A stretch of DNA of 64,000 nucleotides, taken from positions 5,269 through 69,268 of the forward strand of contig DAOUJH010000004.1 in NCBI GenBank assembly GCA_034422935.1. The letters are read 5' to 3'. Position numbers and translations under genes: made by a program. Below the pieces are notes generated by a model that was not told the origin of the DNA, made no database searches, and saw only the letters and a list, made by a program, of their open reading frames with translations. Source of the DNA: Dehalococcoidia bacterium. GTDB lineage: Bacteria > Chloroflexota > Dehalococcoidia > Lucifugimonadales > QGNO01. Of this stretch, positions 1,993-61,338 are shown one piece after another; position 1 is the stretch's first letter; every line of letters begins with the position of its first letter.

Positions 1993-3777
1993 ATGAAAAG
2001 GAGTGAGATGTCTGTTCAGCGTTACTCGGTAAACCAGCACCCTATCGAAACACTATTAACTTGGATCAAATCTGAAGAGATCGCTATTCCTGAGATTCAG
2101 CGCCCTTTCGTCTGGAATGCGGCAAAGGTGCGTGACTTTATCGACTCGCTTTATAACGGCTATCCCGTCGGATATCTCATTGCTTGGCGAAATCCTGGAG
2201 TCCGCCTGAAGGACGGGACTCAATCAACCGGTAAGCGCATCTTGATTGACGGTCAGCAGCGTGTGACTGCCCTACTGGCTGCTTTGCTAGGGGAGCAGGT
2301 AGTTACCAAAGACTACAAGCGGACGAATATCTCTATAGCCTTTCATCCTGGGGAAGAACGCTTTGAGGTGACCAACGCCGCCATCCGTCGGGATCGGGGA
2401 TGGATTGCTGATATCTCCACTTGCTTTGCTCCTGACACGAAGATACTTCAGCTATTGGACGAGTACTGCAACGCGAACCCAGGCTTCAACAGAGACAACG
2501 TATACGAGTGCATGGAGAGCCTTAGAGGTATCCGCAATAACTCCTTGGGCCTTATTGAGTTAAACGCCGAACTAGACGTAGAGACAGTCGCAGAAATTGT
2601 CACGCTGAACGCAGCGGACTTCGCCATGTCCAAGATGGCCGCCAGCGAACAGTACGGTGGCCATCTGCTCCGAAAGTGTATCGACTACTTTTGCCACTTG
2701 TCGGTCGCGCCGGAAGATTACAGCGACTTGGCCAAGGATTATGACTTCGCATCTACGAAATACTTCCATGCAATGGACTGGCTTAAACACGAAAAGAGCG
2801 ACCTCTATGACCCCTCATATACTGACATGCTTAGGGTAGCCTCCACATCAAAGTTTAAGCGTGGACGTTTAGAAGACCTGGTTGCTCTGCTCTCAGGGCG
2901 CAATTTTGAGAAACGCACCTTTGAGGAAGCGATTGCAGAGGAGTCCTTCCATAAGCTCGAAGATGGGATTCTGAGCTATATGAATGAAACCAACTTCAAA
3001 AGGTTCCTAATGATATTGCGATCGGCAGGGTTCATAGATGCTTCATTGATCAGGTCCCAGAATACCGTGAATTTTGCCTATATCCTTTTCTTGATACTGC
3101 GTGAGCAACACGTGGTTCCGGAACAAATCGAGACCTTAGTACGCCGGTGGTTTGTAATGTCAGTCCTTACCGGTAGATACACAGGCGCTCCAGAAACCGC
3201 ATTCGGTTTAGATGTCCGCAACATTGACACACAGGGCGCAAGCGCGTATCTGGACACTATTGAACAAGCGGAGCTTTCGGATGCATTCTGGAGTGTCGGA
3301 CTTCCTCAGCAGATGGACACCTCGGTCGCCAGTAGTCCCTATTTCAACGTTTTTCTGGCGAGCCAGGTAAAGAGTAACGACAACGGATTCCTGTCAAAGG
3401 ACATTACGGTGCAGAACCTCATTGAAGGTCAGGGGCACGTACATCATGTATTCCCTCGTAATTATCTACAAAAAGAGGGACTGTCGAGGAGTAGATACAA
3501 CCAGATCGCCAATTATGTGGTAATGCAGAGCGAGATCAACATCGCCATAGGAGATAAACCTCCAAAGAGGTACTTCACCGAGTTATGGGAACAGTGCAGC
3601 AATAAGAAACCCCGTTATGGTGGAATAACTGATGCCGACCAGTTGCAAGCTAACTTTACTGCCCACTGTATCCCACGTGAGATGGAGGCTAAAGTCGTAG
3701 AAGATTACGACGAATTCCTAAAAGAACGGAGAATGCTCATGAGTGCCAAGATACGGGACTACTACCGGACACTCTAG
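1993..3777 (+). CDS. DUF262/DUF1524 protein, GmrSD/SspE-like putative type IV (modification-dependent) restriction enzyme
   Basis: The N-terminus has the ParB-like DUF262 motif '[34 protein letters not shown] ... LIDGQQR'. The C-terminus has a His-Me/DUF1524-like motif '[12 protein letters not shown] ... [10 protein letters not shown]'. The gene is visibly AT-richer than its neighbours. Confidence 0.75.
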
Positions 3778-9189: not shown

Positions 9190-9287
9190 TCTCCTCCCGT
9201 CCCTGGCGAAAACGTAAAGGCCATTGTAGCAATCGGCTTTGCATAGGGTCAAGGAAAAGCCCGGACGGCATCCAGGACAGCCTCCAC

Positions 9288-9948
9288 CGTCATTCCCGAC
9301 CCCGATCGGGAATCCATCCCCCCGGCGTGGTTCGACGAGCTCACCACGAACGGGTGTGGGCGGGTAATATCCCCGCCAACTGTCATTCTGAACGGAGTGA
9401 AGAATCCAAAAGCTTATGCCCGCAAAGTCGCGCCGTCTTAAACAAACCGCCTTGGATTCTTCTTCGCTTCACTCATCAGAATGACCCGTCCCCACCCCGG
9501 CGTGGTTCGACGAGCTCACCACGAACGAGTGGCCGTCCCGCCACCCCTGGGTACCCGCCTTCGCGGGCACGACGGATGGGGTGGCGTTCAACGGTTTTGG
9601 ATTCTTCGACTCCGCTCCGCTGCGCTCAGAATGACCCGCCCCACCCCGGCGTGGTTCGACAGGCCTGTCCTGAGCCTAGCCGAAGGGCTCACCACGAGCG
9701 GACTTTGGAGTCCGCTGGCCCCGCCCACACAACACCGTTCGCCCTGAGTTTATCGAAGGGCGCCCCCCCGGCGTGGTTCGACGAGCTCACCACGAACGGA
9801 TACCCGTTTCCACCCCTGGATACCCGCCTGCGCGGGCAAGACGAACGGACACATGCTCCCGTTCCCTCCCGTCATTCCCGACCCCGATCGGGAATCCATC
9901 CCCCCGAGCGGGGGCTTTGGTATCCTCTCACTCCGCACTTGAATCCCC
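9288..9948. repeat. intergenic mosaic of at least three short GC-rich hairpin-repeat families
   Basis: R1 'ccccggcgtggttcgacgagctcaccacgaacg' occurs at 9320, 9495, 9644 (interrupted by a 27-nt insert) and 9766. R2 'gtcattcccgaccccgatcgggaatccatcc' occurs at 9289 and 9870, and 'gg(g/a)tacccgcct(t/g)cgcgggca(c/a)gacg' at 9549 and 9818. R3 'ggattcttc...tcagaatgac' occurs at 9382 (inverted), 9452 and 9595. Confidence 0.85.
9382..9485. repeat. composite element, copy A: two inverted R3 hairpin units flanking a ~40-nt core
   Basis: 'gtcattctgaacggagtgaagaatccaa' + 42 nt + 'ttggattcttcttcgcttcactcatcagaatgac'. The same architecture recurs at 46580-46689. Confidence 0.7.
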
Positions 9949-10187
9949 GCCACTTCCCACTTCCCCATGCCCACTGTCTCGCGCTATCCTCAATCCATGT
10001 ACAGCAACCCCATCCGTGTCGCCACCAAAACTTTGCTATATCTTGCCCTGAGCCCGCCGGAGGAACCTGTCCTGAGCCCGCCGGAGGAGCCTGTCCTGAG
10101 CCAGTCGAAGGAGATTCGTTTCTCACCTCAAAAAAATATTTGGTTCGCTTTAGCCTTGCAGCTTGACATAACGTCTGAAACGAATCA
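9949..10187 (+). repeat. shared upstream noncoding element, copy 1, ending 75 nt before the selA start
   Basis: It aligns by eye with the reverse complement of 28042-28244. The 3' 86 nt differ by 2 mismatches and one 1-nt indel. The 5' ~85 nt are roughly four-fifths identical. The middle is variable and here holds three tandem ~24-nt units at 10043-10113. A 10-nt inverted repeat 'gattcgtttc'/'gaaacgaatc' lies at 10113-10122 and 10177-10186. Confidence 0.8.
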
Positions 10188-10262
10188 TCGGACTGAGACG
10201 ATGGGCGGCTCCCCTGCCCTCCTGTGCTACAATTCCCGCATCCTCCCTTTTGAGAGGCCGGT

Positions 10263-11621
10263 TTGACCAGTAGATTACGCAGCCTCCCCAGCATTGACGC
10301 CGTCTTGCAGCAAGAGCAGGTGCGGCAACTGGTTGCGGTCTACTCCCATGAAGCCGTCGTCACCGTTATCCGTCGTCATCTGGACGCGATTCGCAACTCC
10401 CCTTCAGGCGGTGAACCCGTTCCCGACCTCGACCGTATAGTGGAAGGCGTGTGCCTGGAAGCGTCCCGCCGTTGGACGACCGGCCCCCGTCGAGTCATCA
10501 ACGCCACCGGGGTCGTCCTGCACACCAACCTGGGCCGCGCTCCACTGAGCAAACCGGCCCTCCAGGCCATGAACGACGCTGCTAGCGGCTACTCCGACCT
10601 GGAGTTCGAACTCCGGCGAGGGCAGCGTGGATCAAGACAGGCCCACGTCAGTTCGCTGATAACCCAGGTCAGCGGAGCGGAGGCGGCGCTGGTGGTGAAC
10701 AACAACGCCTCCGCCGTAATGCTTGGCCTTGCCGCCCTGGCCCGGGGAAAAGAGGTCATAGTGTCTCGCGGTGAAGCGGTGGAGATAGGCGGCGGCTTCC
10801 GCATTCCCGGCGTACTTGCTCAGAGCGGGGCGCGGCTTGTCGAAGTGGGCGCCACCAACCGCACCTACCTATCCGACTACGAATCCGCCATCGGTGAAGA
10901 GACCGGCGCCATTCTCAAGGTGCACGCCAGCAACTTCCGCGTCACTGGCTTCACGCACTCGGTGGAGATCGCCGAGCTGGTGGCCCTGGGCAGGGAGCGT
11001 AATCTGCCCGTCCTCCACGACCTCGGTTCCGGCTGCCTGCTGGACGTGTCCATGTTCGGCCTGGCCTATGAACCCACCGTGCAGGACAGCATCTCCGCGG
11101 GATGCGGGCTGTCCTTCTTCTCCGGCGATAAACTCCTCGGCGGGCCGCAGGCTGGCATAATCGCCGGCAGCAAGGACCTTGTGCAAAAGCTGTCCGCACA
11201 TCCGCTGGCCCGCGCCGTGCGAATAGACAAGCTCAGCTTGGCCGCGCTGGCCGCCACGCTTCTGCACTACCTCAAAGAGGAAGCGGTCACGGAGATCCCC
11301 GTGTGGCGCATGATCTCCGCCTCCGAGTCCCATCTGAAGGAGCGCGCCCAGGCGTTGCAGAGCGCCATTGGCGCTATAGCCTCTATCGCTCCGGGACGCT
11401 CGGCCATTGGCGGGGGCAGCCTCCCCGGAGAAACCCTGCCCACCTGGCTTGTCGCGCTCGACGGCAACCCGGACGCGATGGCGGACGCTCTCCGCCAAGC
11501 CGATCCGCCCGTAGTTGCCCGCATAGAAGACGACAGGCTGGTGCTGGATCCGCGCACCGTAATGGCAAATGAAGAGGACGCTGTGGTGGAAGCGGTCAGG
11601 CTGGCGGCGGGAACGGGATGA
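10263..11621 (+). CDS. selA: L-seryl-tRNA(Sec) selenium transferase
   Basis: TTG start. 'VINATGVVLHTNLGRA' and the PLP-lysine motif 'FSGDKLLGGPQAGII' match E. coli SelA. Confidence 0.9.
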   Translation: MTSRLRSLPSIDAVLQQEQVRQLVAVYSHEAVVTVIRRHLDAIRNSPSGGEPVPDLDRIVEGVCLEASRRWTTGPRRVINATGVVLHTNLGRAPLSKPALQAMNDAASGYSDLEFELRRGQRGSRQAHVSSLITQVSGAEAALVVNNNASAVMLGLAALARGKEVIVSRGEAVEIGGGFRIPGVLAQSGARLVEVGATNRTYLSDYESAIGEETGAILKVHASNFRVTGFTHSVEIAELVALGRERNLPVLHDLGSGCLLDVSMFGLAYEPTVQDSISAGCGLSFFSGDKLLGGPQAGIIAGSKDLVQKLSAHPLARAVRIDKLSLAALAATLLHYLKEEAVTEIPVWRMISASESHLKERAQALQSAIGAIASIAPGRSAIGGGSLPGETLPTWLVALDGNPDAMADALRQADPPVVARIEDDRLVLDPRTVMANEEDAVVEAVRLAAGTG

Positions 11622-14460: not shown

Positions 14461-15549
14461 TCACTCACGCCGCAGTATCAGGCGTGCGAACACTGCAGCA
14501 GCAAAGACGCTTGCAAGCCCCTGGATGATGATGAGCGTAGTGCGCCTACGGGGTGACGAAGCGATGCCCCCCAGAGCATCGCGGACACGCGGTATCGCCA
14601 TACTGATCACCGGAGCGGATGGCTGGTCCAGTTCTGGCTGTACCAGTTGCGGCACAGACGCTGTGCCTGACGGCTGAGGCGTTGTTGCGAGAGCACCAAG
14701 CGTGGGCTCCACGGTAGGTGTGGGCGTGGGCGTGGGCGTCGGTTCAGGCGTATTTGTGGGTAGCGGCACCAGCGTTGGAGTTGGTGTTGGCGTCGCCGTG
14801 GGGGTCGGCGTAGGAGTTGGGGTTGGAGTGGACGTGGGAGTGGGAGTTGGGGTTGGAGTGAGAGTTGGTGTAGCCGTAGCCGTGGGTGTGGGCGTGTCGG
14901 GCGGAGGCGGAGGTGGTGATGGAGTTGGCGTGTTTGGAGGCGGAGTTGGCGTGTTCGGAGACAGAGTTGGGATAGGAGTCGGCGTGTTTGTTGGGGTTGG
15001 AGTAGGCGTGAAAGTGGGTGTATTGACGGGAGGAGGAGGAGGAGGTGGTGGTGGTTGTGGCGGTTGTGGCGTGGAACCATCCCTATCCAGCACCCGCACC
15101 GTTCTCCCTGAGGGGCTTCCTACGGTGTACTCCGCAAATGTGGAGTTGATGGCGATTCGGACGGTTCGATTTGTGTTCACCACTCCGTCGTCATTCGCCA
15201 CATCTACCTGGTAGCTCACAACGTCGGTCGTGTCACCCGGATGGAAGGCAAAGGCGATTAACACATCGGCGTCCTCACCCTTCGAAGAGTCCCATACTAT
15301 GATGCCGCCTATGAGTCTCCCTCCTGTGAGACCTGGATCGCCTACACTGACAGGTGGGGAGATTCCTAGTGTGACGTGTACGGAATTCCCTTCCAGAACC
15401 TGTGAGGACGGCTCGACGCTAATCAGCCTGACTACGGGCAATGCTTGCCCTCCCGGTCTGTGATCCGGCTGCACCAGCAGAACAACGACGGCAATCCCGA
15501 TGACTAGGAGGATTCGTTTGGCGTTAAGAAGCTTCAGAAAACGCATCAA
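14461..15549 (-). CDS. membrane-anchored surface protein with a Pro/Thr-rich linker
   Basis: N-terminal TM/signal '[14 protein letters not shown]' and a beta-rich domain (Calx-beta-like impression, low certainty). About 110 aa of PT/PP low complexity follow, then a C-terminal TM '[21 protein letters not shown]'. Confidence 0.6.
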
Positions 15550-18250: not shown

Positions 18251-19023
18251 TTGATAACTAAACTGAGCTTTATTGCAGTGGTGGTTGCGCTTCTGACTCT
18301 CCTGGCATGTGGAAGCGAGCCTACGCCCACGCCGACTCCCACACCCACACCGACGCCTACGCCTACGGCTACACCACGCCGGTGCCTACACCAACGCCTA
18401 CACCTATGCCAGAGCCGACGCAGGCACCCGAACAAGTCGCCGGTTCAGGTGGAATAGCGCCTCTGTCCCTGGATGACCCCATGGCGATTGCGTCAGAGTT
18501 GTCAGAGGCCGAGTTGGCCTGTATTACAGGAGTGGCGGATGTGGCGAGCCTGATGCAGATATTCGCCGCTCCGGAAATGGCATCACCCGAAGAGCAGGCG
18601 CAGGTGTTTGGCTGTTTTGAGGACGAAACAGTGTTGCGCTTGTATCTCACTGGAATCTTGGTGGGCACCGGCCCATTGAGCGTTGAGACCTCTCAGTGCA
18701 TCCGCGCGGGGATGGAAGGAGTTGACCTGAGTGCCGTCATGCTGGCTGGGGCCACGGGTGACGAAGCAGGGGCTATGGCGGGTACCTCTACCTTCATCCT
18801 GGCATTGACCTGCCTGAACGAGGATGAGTGGCAGGCCGCTGCGCCCGTTCTGGGCGCTGCCCCGGAAGAGAGGGAAAACCTGCAGTGCGTTGTGGAAGAA
18901 CTGGGTGGGCCTGATGGCTTCGCCGAGACGCTGGCTGCAGGGGACGAAGCCTCATTCATGGCGCTGTTTGGAGCGGTGGCTCAGTGTGGAGTGCAGTTTG
19001 CGGGTGGACCAGGCTTTGGCTAA
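18251..19023 (+). pseudogene. lipoprotein gene interrupted by a -1 frameshift inside its Pro/Thr linker
   Basis: Frame A (18251) encodes the signal plus lipobox '[33 protein letters not shown]', then junk. Frame B (18307) encodes junk, then 'TTPVPTPTPTPMPEPTQAPEQ' and a 200-aa domain. The frames swap near 18374-18378. Confidence 0.6.
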
Positions 19024-25623: not shown

Positions 25624-26886
25624 TCACTCCAACGCCTCGCTTATCCTCCGGTTCAGGAATCGTCGCATGCCAATCACGTAGCCTACTATGACTGTGCCCG
25701 CCATTCCCAATGCCAGCGGCGCAGAGTAAAGGCTAGCAACTATCCCCTGTATGAACCCTCCCAGCGGGGTGAACCCAAAGGTGAGTCCATACAGTCCCAG
25801 CACCCTCCCCCTCACCGCATCCGTGGTCAGCAGTTGCAGCATCGTGCCCATGGCTGCGTCGTACGACATCAAAGTAGCGCCCACTAGAGCTGAAAGCGCC
25901 AGCGATACGGCAAACCAGGGCGATAGCGCAAAGAGGAGTATGGAAAGACCGGCGCCCATAGCTGTGAATATCAAGAGCGCCTGCTTGTTCCTGAAATCGC
26001 CCAGAGCGGCGACTATGATCGTGCTTACCGTTGCTCCAACCGCATTCGCCGCCGATAGATACCCCAGCCCGATTGCGCCCACTCCCAGCACGTCCCGCGC
26101 CATGACCGGCAGCATCACTAGGAAGGAAAACCCAAACATTTCCATGAGAACGCTCATCAGCAGTAGAGAGCGTATCGGTGCGCTGCCCCAGGCGTATCTC
26201 AACCCTTCAACGGCTGACCGCCAGAACGGCTCCAGGTTGCCCAGCGACCTGTAGTCCCCCTTGACCATGACCACCATCAAACCGCCCAGCCAGGCGCTAA
26301 GGGCCATGAATAGGTAGGTGTATTCCACGCCCAGTCTCTCGATAGATGTTCCGGCCAACACCGACCCTACAATCCTAGATAGGTTCAAGGCTATGTGCTG
26401 GGACGCAAGGGCGTTCAGTATCACTTTGCGCCCCACTATGAGGTAAACCATTGAGTTGCCGGATGGCAGCCGCACGGCCATGAGGATTCCCTGCAATACC
26501 GCGGCGACCGCCAGGTGCCACAACTCCAACCTGCCAGCGAAGATGAGCAACGCCACCGCCATTGCCACCAGCCCAGTCAGCGCCTGCACAGCTATCAGCA
26601 CCTTGCGTTTGTCCCAGCGGTCCACCACCACGCCGCCAATCAGGCCAAACCCCACGTGGCCCATTCCCATCAACCCCGCTATCATCCCTACCCAGAAAGG
26701 GGAGTTGGTGATATCTAGGACCAGCCATCCCTGCGTAAGCATCCCAATGGACATGCTTATCGAGGAGAAGCCGGCGCACAGCCAGTACCACCTATAGTTG
26801 CGGTTGGCCATAGCAGCAAACAGGCGAGGAACCCTCGCCTGTTCTGCCGGAGGCTCTACGCTTGGCTGGTCATCCGGCACGGCCAA
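25624..26886 (-). CDS. MFS transporter
   Basis: 12-TM pattern. 'NRNYRWYWL' is shared with the second MFS gene at 62259. Alternative start at Met26 (26811), which would remove the 17-nt overlap with ltaE. Confidence 0.8.
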   Translation of the reverse strand: MAVPDDQPSVEPPAEQARVPRLFAAMANRNYRWYWLCAGFSSISMSIGMLTQGWLVLDITNSPFWVGMIAGLMGMGHVGFGLIGGVVVDRWDKRKVLIAVQALTGLVAMAVALLIFAGRLELWHLAVAAVLQGILMAVRLPSGNSMVYLIVGRKVILNALASQHIALNLSRIVGSVLAGTSIERLGVEYTYLFMALSAWLGGLMVVMVKGDYRSLGNLEPFWRSAVEGLRYAWGSAPIRSLLLMSVLMEMFGFSFLVMLPVMARDVLGVGAIGLGYLSAANAVGATVSTIIVAALGDFRNKQALLIFTAMGAGLSILLFALSPWFAVSLALSALVGATLMSYDAAMGTMLQLLTTDAVRGRVLGLYGLTFGFTPLGGFIQGIVASLYSAPLALGMAGTVIVGYVIGMRRFLNRRISEALE

Positions 26887-27916
26887 ACTCTCCGGTCACA
26901 GAGTCCAGCACGTTCAACGTTTCGTCCACGTCTTCCGCCGTTATGCCGTAGTGCGTCACCATCCTCACTCCGAGTCCTACCGTGTAGGAGGCAAGCACTC
27001 CACGCTCCTTCAACGCTCCCATGAACTCCATGGCGTTCCCGTTCTCCACGCCGAATATGACGATGTTCGACTGTATAGACTCGGGGTCCAGGGAAAGTCC
27101 GGGCAACCCGGCCAGACCTTTGGCCAGTCGCCGGGCGTTTTCGTGGTCCTCCGCTAATCTATCGACCATGGTTTCCAGCGCAACCACGCCCGCCGCAGCG
27201 ATGATCCCCGCCTGCCGCATTCCCCCGCCGAGAACCTTGCGGCTCTTCCTGACACGCGCAATCGTCTCTTCACTGCCGCACACCAGCGAGCCTACGGGAC
27301 AGCTCAGCCCCTTGGACAAGCAGAAGCTCACCGTATCGGCGGGACGAGCCAGGTCGGCTACGGGTACGCCCAGCGATACCGCCGCGTTGAATATGCGCGC
27401 TCCGTCTATGTGAAGGGCGGCATCGTTGGCGTGCGCTATGGCTCCAATGGCCTCCGTGTACTCAACGTCCAGCACTGCGCCGCTGCACCTGTTTTGCGTA
27501 TTCTCCAGGCAGACCAAGGCCGTCCTTGGCTGGTGAATGTTGTCCGGTCGTATTGCCGCCTCCACCGCCTCCGGCGCCAACATTCCTCCCGAATCGTTGG
27601 GTACCGTCCGCACGTTGATTCCGCCCAATGCTGAGAAGCTGCCCACCTCGTTGTGGAATATGTGAGCCTCTGTGCCCATTATGGCCTCGTCTCCGCGCTG
27701 GCAATGGGTCAACCCCGCGACCAGGTTGGCCATCGACCCGCTTGCCACGTAGACCGCGGCCTCTTTGCCCAACCGTTCCGCGGCCATTGCCTCCAGCCTG
27801 TTCACGGTGGGGTCCTCTCCAAAGACGTCGTCACCCACCTCAGCCTCGGCCATGGCCTTGCGCATCTCCACGGTGGGATGGGTTACGGTATCGCTTCGCA
27901 GGTCTATGATTCGCAT
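26870..27916 (-). CDS. ltaE: low-specificity L-threonine aldolase (PLP-dependent)
   Basis: '[39 protein letters not shown]' and '[13 protein letters not shown]' (PLP lysine region). Confidence 0.85.
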
Positions 27917-28041
27917 GGCGGCTCCTTGTACAAGAACGGGTTTGTTGTCGGTCGTATTCTATCAGGCAGCGCCGTACGGTGCACGGGACTGCCCCACTTA
28001 AAGACCCTGTATAGGGGGCGCTTTTGCCAGGGTCTTTTGAG

Positions 28042-28244
28042 TGATTCGTTTCAGACGTTATGTCAAGTAGCAAGGCTAAACGCGAACCAAATATTTTTTT
28101 GAGGTGAGAAACGAATCTCCTTCGACTAAGCTTAGGACGAGATACCGTGAAGGAGGGGTTGGCTTTTGTGGCGGCTGCAGATGGCTTGCTGTACATGGAC
28201 AGAGGATAGCGCGATAAGGCGGGTATGGGGAAGGAGGAAGTGGC
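28042..28244 (-). repeat. shared upstream noncoding element, copy 2, ending 125 nt before the ltaE start
   Basis: It is the reverse-complement counterpart of 9949-10187. It has the same orientation relative to its downstream gene. Confidence 0.8.
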
Positions 28245-28827: not shown

Positions 28828-30270
28828 ATGACGAAACCCAACTTCAAGAACCGCACTCTTTGGACGGGCGACAACCTGGACATCATGCGGGGTCTCAACT
28901 CTGAGACCGTTGACCTGATCTACCTGGACCCGCCGTTCAACTCCAACCGGGACTACGCAGCGCCGATAGGTTCAGCGGCTGCAGGCGCGGCCTTCAAGGA
29001 CACCTGGACACTTTCCGACGTAGACCTAGCGTGGCACGGGGAGATAGCGGAGGCCAACCCTGCCCTATACCGCGTGATAGATGCGGTACGGGAGGCGCAT
29101 GGCAAGGGGATGCAGTCCTATCTCATTATGATGGCCGTCCGGCTTTTAGAGATGAAGCGATTGTTGAAGTCTACAGGCAGCATTTACCTACACTGTGACC
29201 CGACGGCGAGCCACTATCTGAAACTGCTAATGGATACGGTGTTTGGAGCAAGACAGTTTTGGGCGAATATCACTTGGAAACGCACTTCGGCGCACAACGA
29301 CAGACTCTTTGGTTCCGAGTCTGACACTATTCTCATGTACGGCGGTAGTAAACAGAATCGCGACGCCGTGCTGGTACCACATACCGAAAAAAACCTTGCG
29401 TCAAAGTACCGGTACGAGGATGACAATGGGAGATACCGGACTGGTGACCTAACTGGCGCAGGCACGAGTGAAGGGGAATCGGGTTCAGCATGGCGCGGTT
29501 TCGACCCAAGCGCTATTGGACGCCATTGGGCGGTTCCAAAAACAGGCGCATACGCTCGGTATCTCGATAAGCTGTTGCCTGGCTATCTCAGTATTAACGG
29601 CGTCCACGAACGACTTGACTCACTGGATGAGGCGGGGATGATTCACTATTCCTCAAGAGGTGGCATGCCAGCGCTAAAGCGTTACCTGCCGCCAGATGCA
29701 GGTCGCCTTCCTGGCGACTTGTGGACGGACATTGATGTTGTCAACGCCCAAGCTAAAGAGCGAATAGGCTACCCTACCCAGAAGCCCCTGGCGCTCTTGG
29801 AGCGCATCATCAAGGCCAGCAGCAACGAGGGAGATGTAGTGCTTGATCCGTTCTGCGGTTGTGCCACGGCTCTTGTAGCGGCGGAGAAACTGGAACGCGA
29901 GTGGGTGGGCATTGACATATCGTCCAAGGCTAGGGATCTCGTCAAAGTCCGTATGGGGAAGGAGCTTGGCCTGTTCAGCATCGGAACGGTCTACCGTGAC
30001 GACGTTCCGATGCGTACTGACCTTGGCGAGTTGCCCCATTACAAGACGCACAAGCACACGCTGTTTGGAAAACAGGAGGGGCACTGTGCCGGGTGCAAGC
30101 ACGACTTCCCGTTTCGCAACTTCACCGTTGATCACATCGTGTCGCAGTCAAAGGGCGGCACCGACCATATAGACAACCTTCAACTGCTATGTAACGCCTG
30201 CAACTCCATGAAGGGAACCAAGACCCAAGAGGAGTTCCTGGTGGCGCTGAAGCAGGCAGGGATTGGGTAG
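28828..30270 (+). CDS. beta-class N6-adenine/N4-cytosine DNA methyltransferase fused to a C-terminal HNH endonuclease
   Basis: Motif IV 'LIYLDPPFNS' is N-terminal and motif I 'VLDPFCGCATALVAA' comes later, which is the beta-class order. The C-terminus 'HCAGCKHDFPFRNFTVDHIVSQSKGGTDHIDNLQLLCNACNSMKG' is a CxxC...DH...N...CxxC HNH finger. Confidence 0.85.
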   Translation: MTKPNFKNRTLWTGDNLDIMRGLNSETVDLIYLDPPFNSNRDYAAPIGSAAAGAAFKDTWTLSDVDLAWHGEIAEANPALYRVIDAVREAHGKGMQSYLIMMAVRLLEMKRLLKSTGSIYLHCDPTASHYLKLLMDTVFGARQFWANITWKRTSAHNDRLFGSESDTILMYGGSKQNRDAVLVPHTEKNLASKYRYEDDNGRYRTGDLTGAGTSEGESGSAWRGFDPSAIGRHWAVPKTGAYARYLDKLLPGYLSINGVHERLDSLDEAGMIHYSSRGGMPALKRYLPPDAGRLPGDLWTDIDVVNAQAKERIGYPTQKPLALLERIIKASSNEGDVVLDPFCGCATALVAAEKLEREWVGIDISSKARDLVKVRMGKELGLFSIGTVYRDDVPMRTDLGELPHYKTHKHTLFGKQEGHCAGCKHDFPFRNFTVDHIVSQSKGGTDHIDNLQLLCNACNSMKGTKTQEEFLVALKQAGIG

Positions 30271-43269: not shown

Positions 43270-44562
43270 CTAACCCTGGCAGAGACGCTGCAAAAGATGA
43301 CTTTCGTTGAACGCCTCGTTCCCCCGCGCTCGTATGCACGGGGTGTTGTCACCGTATACTTCAGAGTTGGGGTCGGCACCTCCGTCCAGCAATGCCTCTA
43401 CTACTTCCAGGCGACTCTGATGTATGGCAATCAGCAAAGGTGTGCGATTGTACTGATCAACGGCTTCGGTGTCCGCGCCGTGGCGCACCAATAGCGCTAC
43501 CAGTTCCGGGCGGGCATTCCAAGCCGCTGCGTGAAGAGGTGTTTGCATCTGACTGTCCTCGACATTGATTTCAGCCCCCCGGTCTATTAGCGAGGCCGTG
43601 ATATCAAACCCGTCGCCATAAGCGGCATCATGCAGAAGAGTCCAGCCGTTCTCATTGCTGACATTGGCGTCAGCCCCGGCTTCGAGCAACACCTCCACTA
43701 TTGCTGCGTTCTTGTCGACTATAGCCCAATACAGGGGCGTGTCTCCATGTTCGATCCCAACGTTGGGATTCGCGCCTCGGTCAAGGAACAACTCGGCCAT
43801 CGCCAAGTCATTATTGAATACCGTCCAATACAGGGGAGTCCTCCGTTGAAACTCGGCCTCAGTGTTCGCACCACGATCTAGGAGGGCCATGACTACTTCC
43901 CGCTCATTGGACCTTGCGGCTTCGTGTAGAGGTGTTTCGCCCCCAAACCTGGCAGCATCGATATCTGCGCCTCCATCAAGCAGAGCCTCTACCACTGCCG
44001 GATTGGGATTCTCCGCTGCCGCGGAATGCAACGGCGTGGCATCCATGGAATTCCTTTCATTGACATCGGCCCCGCCCTCGAGCAGCGCCTGCACTACCGT
44101 TGCATTGGGATTCTGGGCCGCCGCCAAATGCAAGGGTGTAGCGTTGAGCCAATCGTCGGCGTTAACGTCTGCGCCTCCATCAAGCAGCACTTCCACCATC
44201 GCCGGGTTGACGTTCCGGGCCGCTGCCAAATGCAACGGAGTAGCACCATTTTGGGCGCTTAGAGTCACGTCCGCCCCCTGCTCGATTAACAACACTGCTA
44301 CTGCCGGATCTTTATTCTGGGCCGCTACCAAGTGCAACGGGGTGGCGCCGTCCTCATCTTTGGCATTTATGTCAGCTCCTTCTCTCATCAGTTCCTCGAC
44401 CTCCTGCGGCGAGCCTGTGGCCGCTGAACTATGTAGAAGTTTTGTGGAACTTGAACCGGAGTCTGTAGAGTCATTCCCTCTCTTGGGGACTATTCCGCAT
44501 GTGACGACAATGGCCAGGGATAAGACCACGGCGATTATTAAGGCTGATACGGCAATCTTCAT
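43270..44562 (-). CDS. secreted or membrane-anchored ankyrin-repeat protein (about 11 ANK repeats)
   Basis: N-terminal 'MKIAVSALIIAVVLSLAIVVTCG' is followed by repeated 'GADxNAxDxxGxTPLHxAA' units. Confidence 0.85.
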   Translation of the reverse strand: MKIAVSALIIAVVLSLAIVVTCGIVPKRGNDSTDSGSSSTKLLHSSAATGSPQEVEELMREGADINAKDEDGATPLHLVAAQNKDPAVAVLLIEQGADVTLSAQNGATPLHLAAARNVNPAMVEVLLDGGADVNADDWLNATPLHLAAAQNPNATVVQALLEGGADVNERNSMDATPLHSAAAENPNPAVVEALLDGGADIDAARFGGETPLHEAARSNEREVVMALLDRGANTEAEFQRRTPLYWTVFNNDLAMAELFLDRGANPNVGIEHGDTPLYWAIVDKNAAIVEVLLEAGADANVSNENGWTLLHDAAYGDGFDITASLIDRGAEINVEDSQMQTPLHAAAWNARPELVALLVRHGADTEAVDQYNRTPLLIAIHQSRLEVVEALLDGGADPNSEVYGDNTPCIRARGNEAFNESHLLQRLCQG

Positions 44563-59091: not shown

Positions 59092-61338
59092 TTGAGAGTT
59101 TACCTTATTGTTGCGGCGCTGCTCCTGCTTGCGGCCTTGGCCTGCACTTCCGAGGAGCCCAGCCCCACGGAAATGCCCACGCAGACACCTGAAGCGTCGC
59201 CGATACCCACACCCACGCCTACTCCTATACCATCGGCAACACCAACACCCCGGCCGAGTCCCACTCCTACGCCAAGCCAGACGCCTACGCCAACCAGCCA
59301 GCCATCGCCAGCGACGCCCACGGCTACACCGACGCCTGTGGACGAGATCACCATCCCCGACTCTTTCCAGACCCTGATAAACAGGAACTTTGGATTCCAA
59401 CTCAGGTATCCGCCGGATTGGAACGTGGTGACCCGGGTAAATCCCCCTACCATGGTGCTAATGGGTAACCCCGGCGGCGCTCCATCGTTGGTCCAGGTGA
59501 GCCTGTTCTATGACACGGCCATAGTCACGCCGGACGCCGCCGTGGATAATTTGTTGCCCGAGCTGTTCAGCCGCACAGGGTTCCGCACTCTGGACGACAC
59601 TGTAGTCAATCTCAACGACGGCTCTACCGGTTTTCAGACCACCTACCAGTGGCGCAGCGACCAGGGAGAGGAGCAGGGCGTCCTTTTTGCCACTGTGCGA
59701 GGCACTCAGAAATTCTTTATACGAGCCGAGGGTCCCAAGGACGACTTCGAAGCCAGTATGGATGACCTGCAAGCGTTCATAGCCAGCTTTCAACTGAACG
59801 AGCCGCGACCCTTGGACATCCCGCGCCGGGAAGCGCTCACCCTCTACTTTGACGACGGCCCGCTGTTGCTGGACCCCGCCATTGCCCAAGAAAGCCAGTC
59901 CATCCAGTACATCATGCAGGTGTTCTCCGGCTTGGTCTCTTTCAACAAGGATCTGGTGCTAGTGCCTGAACTGGCCAGCGAATGGTCTATCTCTGAAGAC
60001 GGCACGGTCTACACTTTCACTCTGCAAGATGGAGCAAAGTTCCATGACGGGAGGCCGGTCACCGCCGCTGACGTCAAGTTTTCCTGGGAACGGGCCTGGG
60101 AACTGGCCGACTCTCCTGGTCTACCCTCCACCACGGTGGGCACATACCTGGATGACGTAGTGGGAATAGAGGAATTCACAAGCGGCGATGCCGAAGAGAT
60201 CAGTGGCGTCCAAGTAATCGACGACGCCACTCTCCAGGTGACAATAGACGACGCCAAGTCATATTTTCTCGCCAAGCTGTCCCATCCCGTGGCGTTTGTG
60301 GTGGATCAGAACCAGATAGCAGCCAGCCAGGGGAGCGGTATACCCTGGTGGGCGGAGCCCAACGGCACGGGGCCTTTCAAGCTGATCAGCTGGGAACCCC
60401 GCAAAGTGATGGCGCTGCAGGCCAATGACGAGTTCTACGGAGGGGCGCCTCCGGTACCTTACTTGGTCTACAGACTGTACGGCGGTGTGCCGCGCCTGAT
60501 GTACGAATCCGGTGAAATAGACGTTGCCCGTGTCTTTGGGGATGAGTTGCCGCAGGTGAAGAGCCCCGATTATCCACTGGCCGGTGAGCTGGTTGAAACT
60601 TCTGAGCTTAGCGTCAACTACGTCGCCATTAACTCTGGCGAACCCCCATTCGATGATCCACTTGTACGCAAGGCGTTCCTGCTGAGTGTTGACAGGGAGA
60701 CTCTATTGGAGGACATATCAGGTGGAGCGGTGGAGCTGGCGAACGGGTTCCTGCCGCCCGGCCTGCCCGGCTACAACCCGGACATAGCCGCCATCCCATT
60801 CGACCCAGATGAGGCGCAACGACTCTTGGAACAGTCGTCCTACGGCGGCGTGGAATCTCTGCCCGACATAGTCTATTCCGCCTCCGGAGTAACGCGGCCG
60901 TCCACAATTGTTTCGCAACTCATTCAGATGTGGAGGATCAACCTGGGCGTGGAGGTGGACGTCCGGCTAGTGGATCCCGACGTCTATTTTTACGCACTGG
61001 ATCAAATTGATAAGAACCTGTTCAACTACGGCTGGATAGCGGATTACCCCGACCCACAAAACTTCCTGGATGTCCTGTTCCATTCCTCTACGGAGAACAA
61101 CCAGGGCGGATACAACAACGCGGAAGTCGATTCCCTGCTGGAGCAGGCCAGGGTGGAGCAGGACCCCAAGCAGAGGACGGAGTTGTACCGCCAGGCTGAA
61201 GCCATGCTAGTAGAAGACGCCGCGGCCATCCCGCTATACCATGGACGGAACCAGATGCTGGTCAAGCCCTACGTAAATGACCTGCTCTTCACTCCGTTCG
61301 GCATGCTGGACTTGAGGGGCGCGTCTCTGGACAGGTAG
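59092..61338 (+). CDS. family-5 ABC substrate-binding lipoprotein with a PT linker and an extra N-terminal domain
   Basis: TTG start and lipobox 'LLLLAALAC', then a PT-rich linker. An extra domain of about 170 aa ('FGFQLRYPPDWNV') precedes the SBP_bac_5-like body. Confidence 0.85.
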   Translation: MRVYLIVAALLLLAALACTSEEPSPTEMPTQTPEASPIPTPTPTPIPSATPTPRPSPTPTPSQTPTPTSQPSPATPTATPTPVDEITIPDSFQTLINRNFGFQLRYPPDWNVVTRVNPPTMVLMGNPGGAPSLVQVSLFYDTAIVTPDAAVDNLLPELFSRTGFRTLDDTVVNLNDGSTGFQTTYQWRSDQGEEQGVLFATVRGTQKFFIRAEGPKDDFEASMDDLQAFIASFQLNEPRPLDIPRREALTLYFDDGPLLLDPAIAQESQSIQYIMQVFSGLVSFNKDLVLVPELASEWSISEDGTVYTFTLQDGAKFHDGRPVTAADVKFSWERAWELADSPGLPSTTVGTYLDDVVGIEEFTSGDAEEISGVQVIDDATLQVTIDDAKSYFLAKLSHPVAFVVDQNQIAASQGSGIPWWAEPNGTGPFKLISWEPRKVMALQANDEFYGGAPPVPYLVYRLYGGVPRLMYESGEIDVARVFGDELPQVKSPDYPLAGELVETSELSVNYVAINSGEPPFDDPLVRKAFLLSVDRETLLEDISGGAVELANGFLPPGLPGYNPDIAAIPFDPDEAQRLLEQSSYGGVESLPDIVYSASGVTRPSTIVSQLIQMWRINLGVEVDVRLVDPDVYFYALDQIDKNLFNYGWIADYPDPQNFLDVLFHSSTENNQGGYNNAEVDSLLEQARVEQDPKQRTELYRQAEAMLVEDAAAIPLYHGRNQMLVKPYVNDLLFTPFGMLDLRGASLDR

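Follow-up and report, generated by a model that had tools for sequence, protein, structure and literature searches.

Introduction

What does a short, apparently non-coding element do when it stands, in the same orientation, upstream of two different genes of one genome? The question is raised by a 64,000-nucleotide (nt) stretch of contig DAOUJH010000004.1 from a Dehalococcoidia bacterium (Chloroflexota), hereafter the window, in which such an element precedes selA (copy A, or E1; positions 9949-10187, + strand) and ltaE (copy B, or E2; 28042-28244, - strand). An earlier note on this DNA had read the pair as a MITE-like insertion (miniature inverted-repeat transposable element) with a preference for 5' regions, as a shared cis-regulatory leader, or as a small RNA, and had linked it to the pyridoxal phosphate (PLP)-dependent, Ser/Thr/Gly-related chemistry of the two enzymes. 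We find instead that the element belongs to an intergenic repeat family whose members carry a promoter-like pair of hexamers, a start codon directly behind it and an open reading frame (ORF) that is kept open while its peptide drifts. The descriptive part of this account, that is, the family, its anatomy, the maintenance of the ORF and the concerted evolution of the copies, we hold with high confidence. Promoter activity, leaderless translation and any regulatory effect are what we infer from the sequence, and the reading that we favour, in which the module would be a portable, translated leaderless leader, is put forward tentatively, as possible rather than probable.

Results

Alignment of copy A with the reverse complement of copy B shows that the two are the same element, built of three segments much as the earlier note had described them: a 5' block of 62 nt with 84% identity (9949-10010 versus 28183-28244), a middle segment that differs between the copies, and a 3' block (AGTCGAAGG...GAATCA) with 2 substitutions and one 1-nt indel. 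Within the 3' block lies an AT-rich core of 74 nt in copy A (10113-10186, + strand) and 75 nt in copy B (28043-28117, - strand), 96% identical between the copies and bounded by a 10-nt inverted repeat, GATTCGTTTC / GAAACGAATC, whose arms occupy 10113-10122 and 10177-10186 in copy A and 28117-28108 and 28052-28043 in copy B. The A7 tract of copy A is found at 10130-10136, and the element ends 75 nt ahead of the selA start codon (TTG, 10263) and 125 nt ahead of that of ltaE (ATG, 27916), all in agreement with the note. The middle segment of copy A contains a tandem repeat (24 nt x 2.8; 10047-10113, + strand; Tandem Repeats Finder) of units, CCTGAGCC.GCCGGAGGA, that resemble repetitive extragenic palindromic (REP) sequences. 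Three sub-patterns of the element (22-39 nt, up to 3 mismatches allowed) match copies A and B only, compared with 0.00 matches expected in dinucleotide shuffles, so the duplication is not a chance likeness. Scans with the sub-patterns gave no third copy, either in the 64 kb of the window or in a further 8 kb at one end of it on its 555-kb metagenomic scaffold (ERZ23495130 scaffold_13); at the opposite end, a look-up of the window ORF at 1993-3777 for extending the scaffold returned no record.

Further copies, suspected in the earlier note, were found in related genomes. An exact 22-mer from the core, scanned against the GTDB genomes, gave 6 matches, all in metagenome-assembled genomes (MAGs) of Dehalococcoidia. 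Profiles for nhmmer were built from such matches, one for the 5' block and one for the core; both recognize copies A and B, and both were run on loci fetched around ltaE and selA orthologues (277 kb in total; designated here by L numbers). Together, the searches recovered 15 full copies and two partial matches, the full copies occupying six loci and coming from about nine related Dehalococcoidia genomes; L016 has the same sequence as L015, and hence 14 copies were scored. The element lies upstream of selA, or of an ATP-binding cassette (ABC) operon inserted before selA, in the window (copy A), L008, L015 (= L016), L017, L018 (copy L018a) and L020; upstream of ltaE in the window (copy B), L010 and L018 (copy L018b); upstream of an amidohydrolase gene in L003; and upstream of an asparaginase gene in L006 (copy L006-1). 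At these loci it is co-oriented with the gene. Otherwise it faces the 3' end of uvrA (L006-2) or of another amidohydrolase gene (L005, L007), and one of the partial matches, L004, faces gpsA. All copies are intergenic, with a module size of 180-320 bp, and most point at a gene start; the supposed preference for 5' regions is thus upheld in part, with three loci facing 3' ends. The supposed tie to PLP-dependent enzymes is lost, given the amidohydrolase, asparaginase and ABC transporter genes and the 3'-facing loci: what two PLP enzymes seemed to have in common ahead of their genes is a repeat found throughout the family and not a pathway-specific signal.

It should be noted that seven copies came from the exact match, so that the invariance of the 22-mer is partly built in; copies located by orthology or proximity have 1-4 differences within it. 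No element lies ahead of selA/ABC in L019, a closer relative (SelA 88% identical), and two more distant relatives lack it too, L011 ahead of both selA and ltaE and L012 ahead of ltaE. A viral contig scan, a plasmid BLAST and a phage BLAST revealed no similarity to it. A metagenome scan with GGAGATTCGTTTCTCACCTC, a pattern that spanned a window-specific REP junction, gave 0 matches, and a second metagenome pattern gave one partial match, L009. The source assemblies have no gene called on any copy, spurious antisense ORFs aside. The family is genus-restricted, within one group of uncultured Dehalococcoidia.

Several copies depart from the basic layout. The two partial matches, L004 4613-4638 (a Baikal Dehalococcoidia MAG) and L009 (SDBU01124421.1, oriented 2046-2160; a contig of 44% GC), share no more with the family than the final 26-30 nt of the core (AGCTTGACATAACGTCTGAAACGAATC); in L009, GATTCGTTTC follows 26 nt after the shared piece, which puts the arms in reverse order, and L004 has an ATG-started frame that stays open through ..LDITSETN. 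Some copies have an additional module of ~100 nt at the 3' side, which the window copies do not have: L006-1 (L006 2120-2237), L010 (1922-2056) and both L018 copies (9640-9762 and 20520-20400); this module ends GAC(T)TATGTCAAGT, which matches CTTGACATAACGTC of the core in inverted orientation and thereby forms a second long-range inverted repeat. At ~9760-9990 of L018, a long tandem array of CTTGCCCATTTGCCC-like units separates the element from selA. L002 (Logan SRR13587050_122896, 1-59), a short-read assembly of the selA locus, breaks off at the A-tract within the core, which fits an assembly interrupted by a repeat.

The 5' block has a strict layout. In a search that allowed a spacer of 16-19 nt and a gap of 4-8 nt, all 14 scored copies show TTCCC(C/T/A), a spacer of 17-18 nt, TAnnnT (mostly TATCCT), exactly 6 nt, and ATG. 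In copy A, the -35-like hexamer TTCCCC is at 9961-9966 and the -10-like hexamer TATCCT at 9985-9990 (+ strand); in copy B, scored by the same geometry, they are at 28227-28232 and 28203-28208 (- strand). The consensus of 13 copies, c.GcCA....C..CTTcCCca..ccc.....c...C..TAtccT....ccATG, with an invariant TA...T, begins ~14 nt ahead of the first hexamer, and no Shine-Dalgarno sequence is found ahead of the ATG. This arrangement suggests a sigma-70-type promoter with +1 at the A of the ATG, and hence a leaderless mRNA. The 5' part that would be transcribed is C-rich and G-poor (C/G ratios of 1.1-2.5). Two other promoter assignments were rejected: the TTGACA of the core is not followed by a -10 hexamer at 16-18 nt downstream in any copy, and for a sigma-54 box the GG-GC spacing, as read from the sequence, is wrong.

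Behind the ATG, the frame is maintained across the whole module. The putative leaderless ORF of copy A (9997-10266, + strand; 89 codons) has no stop between ATG and core end, compared with 5 and 2 stops in the other frames, and its TGA (10264-10266) overlaps the TTG start of selA; that of copy B (27840-28196, - strand; 118 codons) enters ltaE by 76 nt, out of frame. Across the family, the distances from the ATG to GACATAACG are 168, 132, 249, 144, 162, 129, 108, 126, 123, 147, 246 and 147 nt, every one a multiple of 3, and L020 is in frame as well, so that 13 of the 14 scored copies are in frame and stop-free (a binomial calculation for 12 of 13 in frame gives P ~2e-5). Counted over 13 copies, the stops in frames 0, +1 and +2 are 0, 11 and 10 from the ATG to the core start, 0, 25 and 26 within the core, and 0, 13 and 9 in the first 78 nt after the core; the counts summed over the three segments are 0 against 46 and 45. 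The ORF continues at least 26 codons past the core into the module flank, frame 0 being open there for a median of 65 codons (minimum 26) compared with 9 and 33 in the other frames. No reverse-strand frame is consistently open, which rules out a gene on the opposite strand behind the multiple-of-3 lengths.

How the frame is kept can be read from the indels. The core has a single open frame in its right half, ..LAL(Q/L)LDIT(S/L/F)ETN.. (in copy A, ..LALQLDITSETN), whereas its left half (~40 nt) is read in all three frames among the copies, a second indel always restoring the right-half frame. In copy B, the frameshift at core entry is offset by a +G at GGTTCGC(G)TTT; other compensating indels are +C in L003, -T in L006-1 and T3/T4 in L015 versus L017. 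The REP insertions preserve the frame too, as does the 24-nt repeat inside the ORF of copy A, the length of which is a multiple of 3. The earlier note had placed the ORFs over the two copies in different frames; this applies only to the ~40 nt of the left half of the core, and the copies share both the start context and the right-half frame. Programmed frameshifting at the A7 tract was rejected, the frames being repaired by DNA indels instead.

These observations bear directly on a rival explanation, in which the module would be an interspersed repeat of the MITE, REP or BOX kind, selfish or neutral, spread by recombination or an unspecified transposase, with no host function and with the open frame as a passenger. 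The family is indeed multi-copy, intergenic and modular, with REPs of other types inserted and the extra 3' module in four copies; it is present or absent among relatives and lies in both orientations to neighbouring genes; and the break of a short-read assembly inside the core is what a repeat would give. A passenger ORF, however, should decay, whereas here frame 0 is free of stops, all ATG-to-core distances are multiples of 3, and three independent frameshifts have been compensated. The element also lacks the marks of a transposon: the core arms enclose the 3' core only, the element ends (GCCAC... and ...GAAACGAATC) are not inverted copies of each other, no direct repeat that could be a target-site duplication is shared in the flanks of 9 aligned copies, and no transposase relative of the element occurs in the 277 kb of loci. 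Comparison of a filled with an empty site (L015 versus L019) is scrambled by REPs and yields no clean empty site. A classical MITE is therefore rejected, even if the family is dispersed, multi-copy and variably present at orthologous sites (lacking in L019, L011 and L012). The broader selfish-repeat explanation, for which the history of the loci (below) speaks on both sides, we consider unlikely. IS200/IS605-type ends were rejected as well, no subterminal hairpins being read from the sequence.

We then asked what the frame encodes. In seven copy pairs the ratio of nonsynonymous to synonymous change (pN/pS) is 0.73-1.01, compared with 0.18-0.23 for selA as a control; an eighth pair, L018a/b, has a value of 8.25 that derives from 0.5 synonymous changes. 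The GC content at third codon positions (GC3) is 0.54, compared with 0.62-0.76 for genes, and in 12 translated copies only the residues F, D, I, T, T and N are invariant. Pfam and NCBIfam have no match for the ORF peptide, and a profile of the translated core gave one chance match only in 5.8 billion proteins. ORF length varies from 75 to 264 codons, with unrelated C-terminal tails of 26-221 codons that enter neighbouring genes or run antisense to them. Because pN/pS is ~1, GC3 is not gene-like, few residues are invariant and the peptide has no relatives in these databases, we conclude that selection acts on translatability and not on the product: the open frame is retained while the peptide drifts neutrally. 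The earlier note's view that conservation is at the nucleotide or RNA level and not at the protein level thus stands as regards the peptide, which evolves neutrally, and falls as regards the ATG-started ORF, which is kept open in 13 of 14 copies.

For the same reasons it is quite improbable that the copies are small functional protein genes with F..KK.W..LxLDITxETN as the active part. The maintained ORF, the invariant D, I, T, T and N, and the L004 copy, which has only the last 26 nt and yet an ATG-started frame open through that motif, would all fit such genes. However, a selected product is hard to reconcile with a pN/pS of ~1, a left core half translated in three frames, unrelated tails, a codon usage that is not gene-like and the nil result of the profile search, and the invariant residues overlap an inverted-repeat arm and the part ascertained by exact match.

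The inverted repeat is the one structural feature that the copies share. Of 13 copies, 12 retain it; there is a single compensatory change, C-G to T-A (L015/L017), and the U.G wobbles agree with the + strand. Only this outer 10-bp stem is conserved, almost without variation; the interior of the core is not structurally conserved, fold z-scores range from -0.8 to -1.2, and the covariation term of RNAalifold is +0.06. Comparison of the copies revealed no conserved partner for pairing with a ribosome-binding site (RBS) after the core. In Rfam, the comparison that the earlier note had proposed gave no relevant match, either for the window at gathering score or for both copies and one long-form copy at E<=10, where only chance-level matches were seen. 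We therefore give the lowest probability of all to a structured non-coding RNA, be it a cis-regulatory leader or riboswitch of PLP-dependent Ser/Thr/Gly enzymes or a trans-acting small RNA. The long-range stem with its compensatory change and + strand wobbles, the promoter-like 5' block and the co-orientation of most copies with a downstream gene speak for it; against it are the z-scores, the covariation term, the unstructured interior and an ORF constraint that would be unexpected for a pure non-coding RNA, as are neighbours unrelated in cofactor, some of them convergent, and native gene promoters that lie downstream of the element, which places it outside the usual 5' untranslated region. 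A small RNA gene was rejected for want of a conserved terminator after the core, and a PLP or Ser/Thr riboswitch is unlikely with gene promoters downstream and three loci facing 3' ends.

The history of the two window loci can be followed in the relatives. In L018 (SelA 86% identical), E1 and E2 are at the same two sites as in the window (L018 9351-9667 and 20497-20715), and the window copies are thus not recent insertions. At the level of the core, paralogs within a genome are far more alike (96% for window A/B, 95% for L018a/b) than orthologs (71-85%), as expected for concerted evolution, and the window core is 97% identical to that of the copy upstream of the asparaginase gene in another species. 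Window A and L008 agree at 149 of the 150 positions between the left arm and the start of selA, whereas their selA genes are 92.6% identical (86% at third positions) and the promoter blocks of their 5' halves only 71%; homology restarts exactly at the left arm, 10113. Near-identity beside a diverged selA indicates a recent sequence exchange at the locus. Taken together, the selA and ltaE copies are old orthologous fixtures across the genus, kept alike by gene conversion. For a selfish repeat, concerted evolution and the near-neutral divergence of distant orthologs are in keeping with expectation, and stable orthology across the genus is not.

The same loci raise the possibility of a DNA-level site, in which the inverted repeat of the core would be a protein-binding or recombination site at the edge of a cargo hotspot, perhaps tied to a gene for a fusion of an N6/N4 DNA methylase and an HNH nuclease (MTase-HNH). 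The cargo of the coaE-selA spacer does vary by genome (MTase-HNH, MazE/PIN, a leucine-rich repeat protein, P63C/IS1595 or the ABC operon), the restart of homology at 10113 coincides with an arm, and E1 and E2 form inverted repeats around a conserved block of 9-18 kb (selA ... MgsA, a major facilitator superfamily transporter gene, ltaE), 18 kb long in the window and 11 kb in L018. The MTase-HNH gene lies divergent beside an element copy in the window, L015, L017 and L018. Yet most other copies have no such neighbour, no recombinase is associated with the element, no inversion of the bracketed block is seen in 5 genomes, and the promoter geometry and ORF maintenance would go unexplained; we give this explanation little credence, somewhat less than the small-protein one. 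Three candidate sites were also rejected on reading the sequence: an integron attC site (no RYYYAAC / GTTRRRY), a dif-like site (no dyad) and a tRNA or tmRNA 3' end serving as an att site (T-loop mismatch).

The MTase-HNH gene itself behaves as a mobile cassette. It is located beyond ltaE in the window (28828-30270, + strand) and between coaE and the selA element in L015 (6549-7955), L017 (7803-9260) and L018 (7707-9173), with a 49-nt remnant in L008. The coaE-selA spacer (9253-10262 in the window) is a mosaic of short REP-like repeats, including GGCGTGGTTCGACGAGCTCACCACGAACGG three times (9317, 9492, 9763) and a perfect 38-mer, CCGTCATTCCCGACCCCGATCGGGAATCC..., twice (9287, 9869); its repeat types are found again in L003, L006, L008 and L019.

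The downstream genes are as the earlier note had named them, both for PLP-type enzymes: selA (L-seryl-tRNA(Sec) selenium transferase; 10263-11621, + strand) matches Pfam PF03841 (E=1e-138) and PF12390, and the ltaE-like gene (low-specificity threonine aldolase; 26870-27916, - strand) matches PF01212, Beta_elim_lyase (E=1e-104), its homologues being named threonine aldolase by their sources. Each has an extended -10-like promoter of its own between module and gene, TGCTACAAT for selA (10225-10233, + strand) and TGATAGAAT for ltaE (27956-27964, - strand). An equivalent of the former, TGCTAAAAT, lies upstream of selA in the module-less L011, and TG.TAGAAT is kept upstream of ltaE in L010, with the module, and in L011 and L012, without it. 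Elsewhere in the window, low-complexity arrays of GTNGGN / CCNACN with a period of 12 nt occur at 14693-15039, 18318-18423 and 59180-59331, the first two mutually inverted and ~3.4 kb apart, and three 85-nt repeats, 102 nt apart and 72-73% identical, lie at 43956-44244 and probably encode a 34-residue repeat protein.

Discussion

In the reading that we favour, the module would consist of a putative sigma-70-like promoter (TTCCCC-N17/18-TAtccT), an ATG 6 nt further on, an ORF that runs through a REP-invaded spacer, and the 74-nt core. Selection preserves the spacing of the promoter-like boxes and the ATG, the arms of the inverted repeat and an ORF free of stops, and not the peptide. Transcription would begin at the AUG of the module, and 70S ribosomes would translate the C-rich, G-poor 5' part and then the AT-rich, rare-codon core with its stem. 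Leaderless translation would follow the transcript through the core, either outward to a neighbouring operon or antisense into a convergent gene, so that the module would add a second, translation-dependent input upstream of a gene's own promoter. Translation may act by shielding the C-rich nascent RNA from premature termination; alternatively, what matters may be the position or passage of the ribosome on the core stem and rare-codon stretch, as in the leaderless small-ORF (sORF) attenuators of mycobacteria (10.1101/834739).

Support for a translated leader comes from the maintenance of the ORF well past the conserved sequence and from the overlap of its stop with the downstream start at three loci, with TTGA at selA (window, L008, L020), ATGA in L006-1 and, in L003, a distance of +8 nt. 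A number of observations weigh against it. The -35-like hexamer agrees with TTGACA at 3 of 6 positions, and a promoter consensus scan called nothing there. The promoters of selA, ltaE and the ABC operon lie downstream of the module, and those of selA and ltaE persist in module-less relatives; three loci point at gene 3' ends (amidohydrolase, uvrA, gpsA); and no conserved terminator or anti-terminator was found after the core when the copies were compared. In distant orthologs, the core diverges at about the rate of third codon positions (71-85% identity, compared with 73-79% for the third positions of selA and ltaE), which indicates that constraint on the nucleotides is modest outside a few features. 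One copy, L010, from a 5x long-read contig, has a broken frame. The ORF end is also set variously against the gene start at the other loci (L017 +105, L018a -240, L018b -54, window B +76, L015 +290), and translational coupling is rejected as a general rule, with overlap at 3 independent loci and none at 5 others. Finally, the sample is one of 15 copies, partly ascertained by an exact 22-mer. Of the explanations weighed against a portable translated leader, the selfish repeat ranks first, followed by the small protein, the DNA-level site and, last, the structured RNA.

A bolder extension would make the modules mobile, gene-conversion-homogenised ribosome-sensing leaders, in the sense of a 'ribulon' (10.1101/834739), that is, a cassette that can be copied to new genes. 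Translation of the Ile-Thr-x-x-Thr-Asn rare-codon stretch and the stem would report on charged-tRNA or translation status and would set read-through into selA (Ser), ltaE (Thr), asparaginase (Asn) and the amidohydrolase genes. D-I-T-x-x-T-N is the only part of the peptide that is invariant, and the 10-bp stem is conserved in 12 of 13 copies. This extension is speculative, and we regard it as doubtful, a shade less likely than a selfish repeat.

Whatever its mechanism, the strongest selected feature of this repeat family is an open frame with an unconserved product, starting at the predicted first base of the transcript, in a class of sequence, intergenic repeats, that is usually filed as non-coding. 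Should the predicted transcription and translation take place, the module would be a translation-dependent leader of a portable kind and would join two ideas, mobile promoters and leaderless regulatory sORFs, neither of which, to our knowledge, has been described in this phylum. Units of this kind are missed completely by automatic annotation.

Among known repeats, Streptococcus pneumoniae BOX elements and repeats of the ERIC (enterobacterial repetitive intergenic consensus) and BIME (bacterial interspersed mosaic element) type are likewise intergenic and modular, with a conserved 5' unit, a variable middle and a conserved 3' unit; we know of no promoter-ATG geometry, frame maintenance or sequence similarity to the module in them. 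Rickettsia palindromic elements do preserve the reading frame, but they lie within the genes of host proteins and are translated together with these, whereas the module is intergenic and brings its own start codon. Correia repeat enclosed elements of Neisseria have terminal inverted repeats and a TA target duplication; the module has neither, its inverted repeat encloses the 3' core only, and it carries a maintained ORF. In other respects the module is like Correia repeats (PMC2649163) and MITEs (PMC10969869), which are short intergenic repeats with a conserved core, inverted repeats and variable presence among related genomes; such elements can supply promoters and change how neighbouring genes are expressed.

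Two further concepts come closer. Putative mobile promoters (Matus-Garcia, Nijveen and van Passel 2012; PMC3575422) are near-identical upstream sequences before non-homologous genes, within a genome and in related genomes, with a promoter-like signal and no known tie to a transposon, all of which applies to the module; here, however, the genes keep their own downstream promoter, a start codon stands at the predicted +1 and opens a maintained ORF, and some copies face 3' ends. In the leaderless sORF attenuators of mycobacteria (10.1101/834739; PMC4633059), as in the module, the transcript is predicted to start at an ATG that no Shine-Dalgarno sequence precedes, the ORF is unannotated and stands ahead of an operon, and the leader contains an RNA duplex; action through the position of the ribosome on such a duplex is established there (10.1101/834739), and the role of the module, too, would hang on ribosome position and not on the peptide. 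The mycobacterial sORFs are short, single-copy per operon and marked by runs of the sensed codon (Cys), whereas the module has 75-264 codons, no codon run (only I-T-x-x-T-N is invariant) and no identified RBS-sequestering structure, and is repeated, concertedly evolving and sometimes convergent. None of these nearest concepts unites the three traits of the module, namely its repetition as a family, a start codon that coincides with the predicted +1, and a frame maintained without conservation of the peptide.

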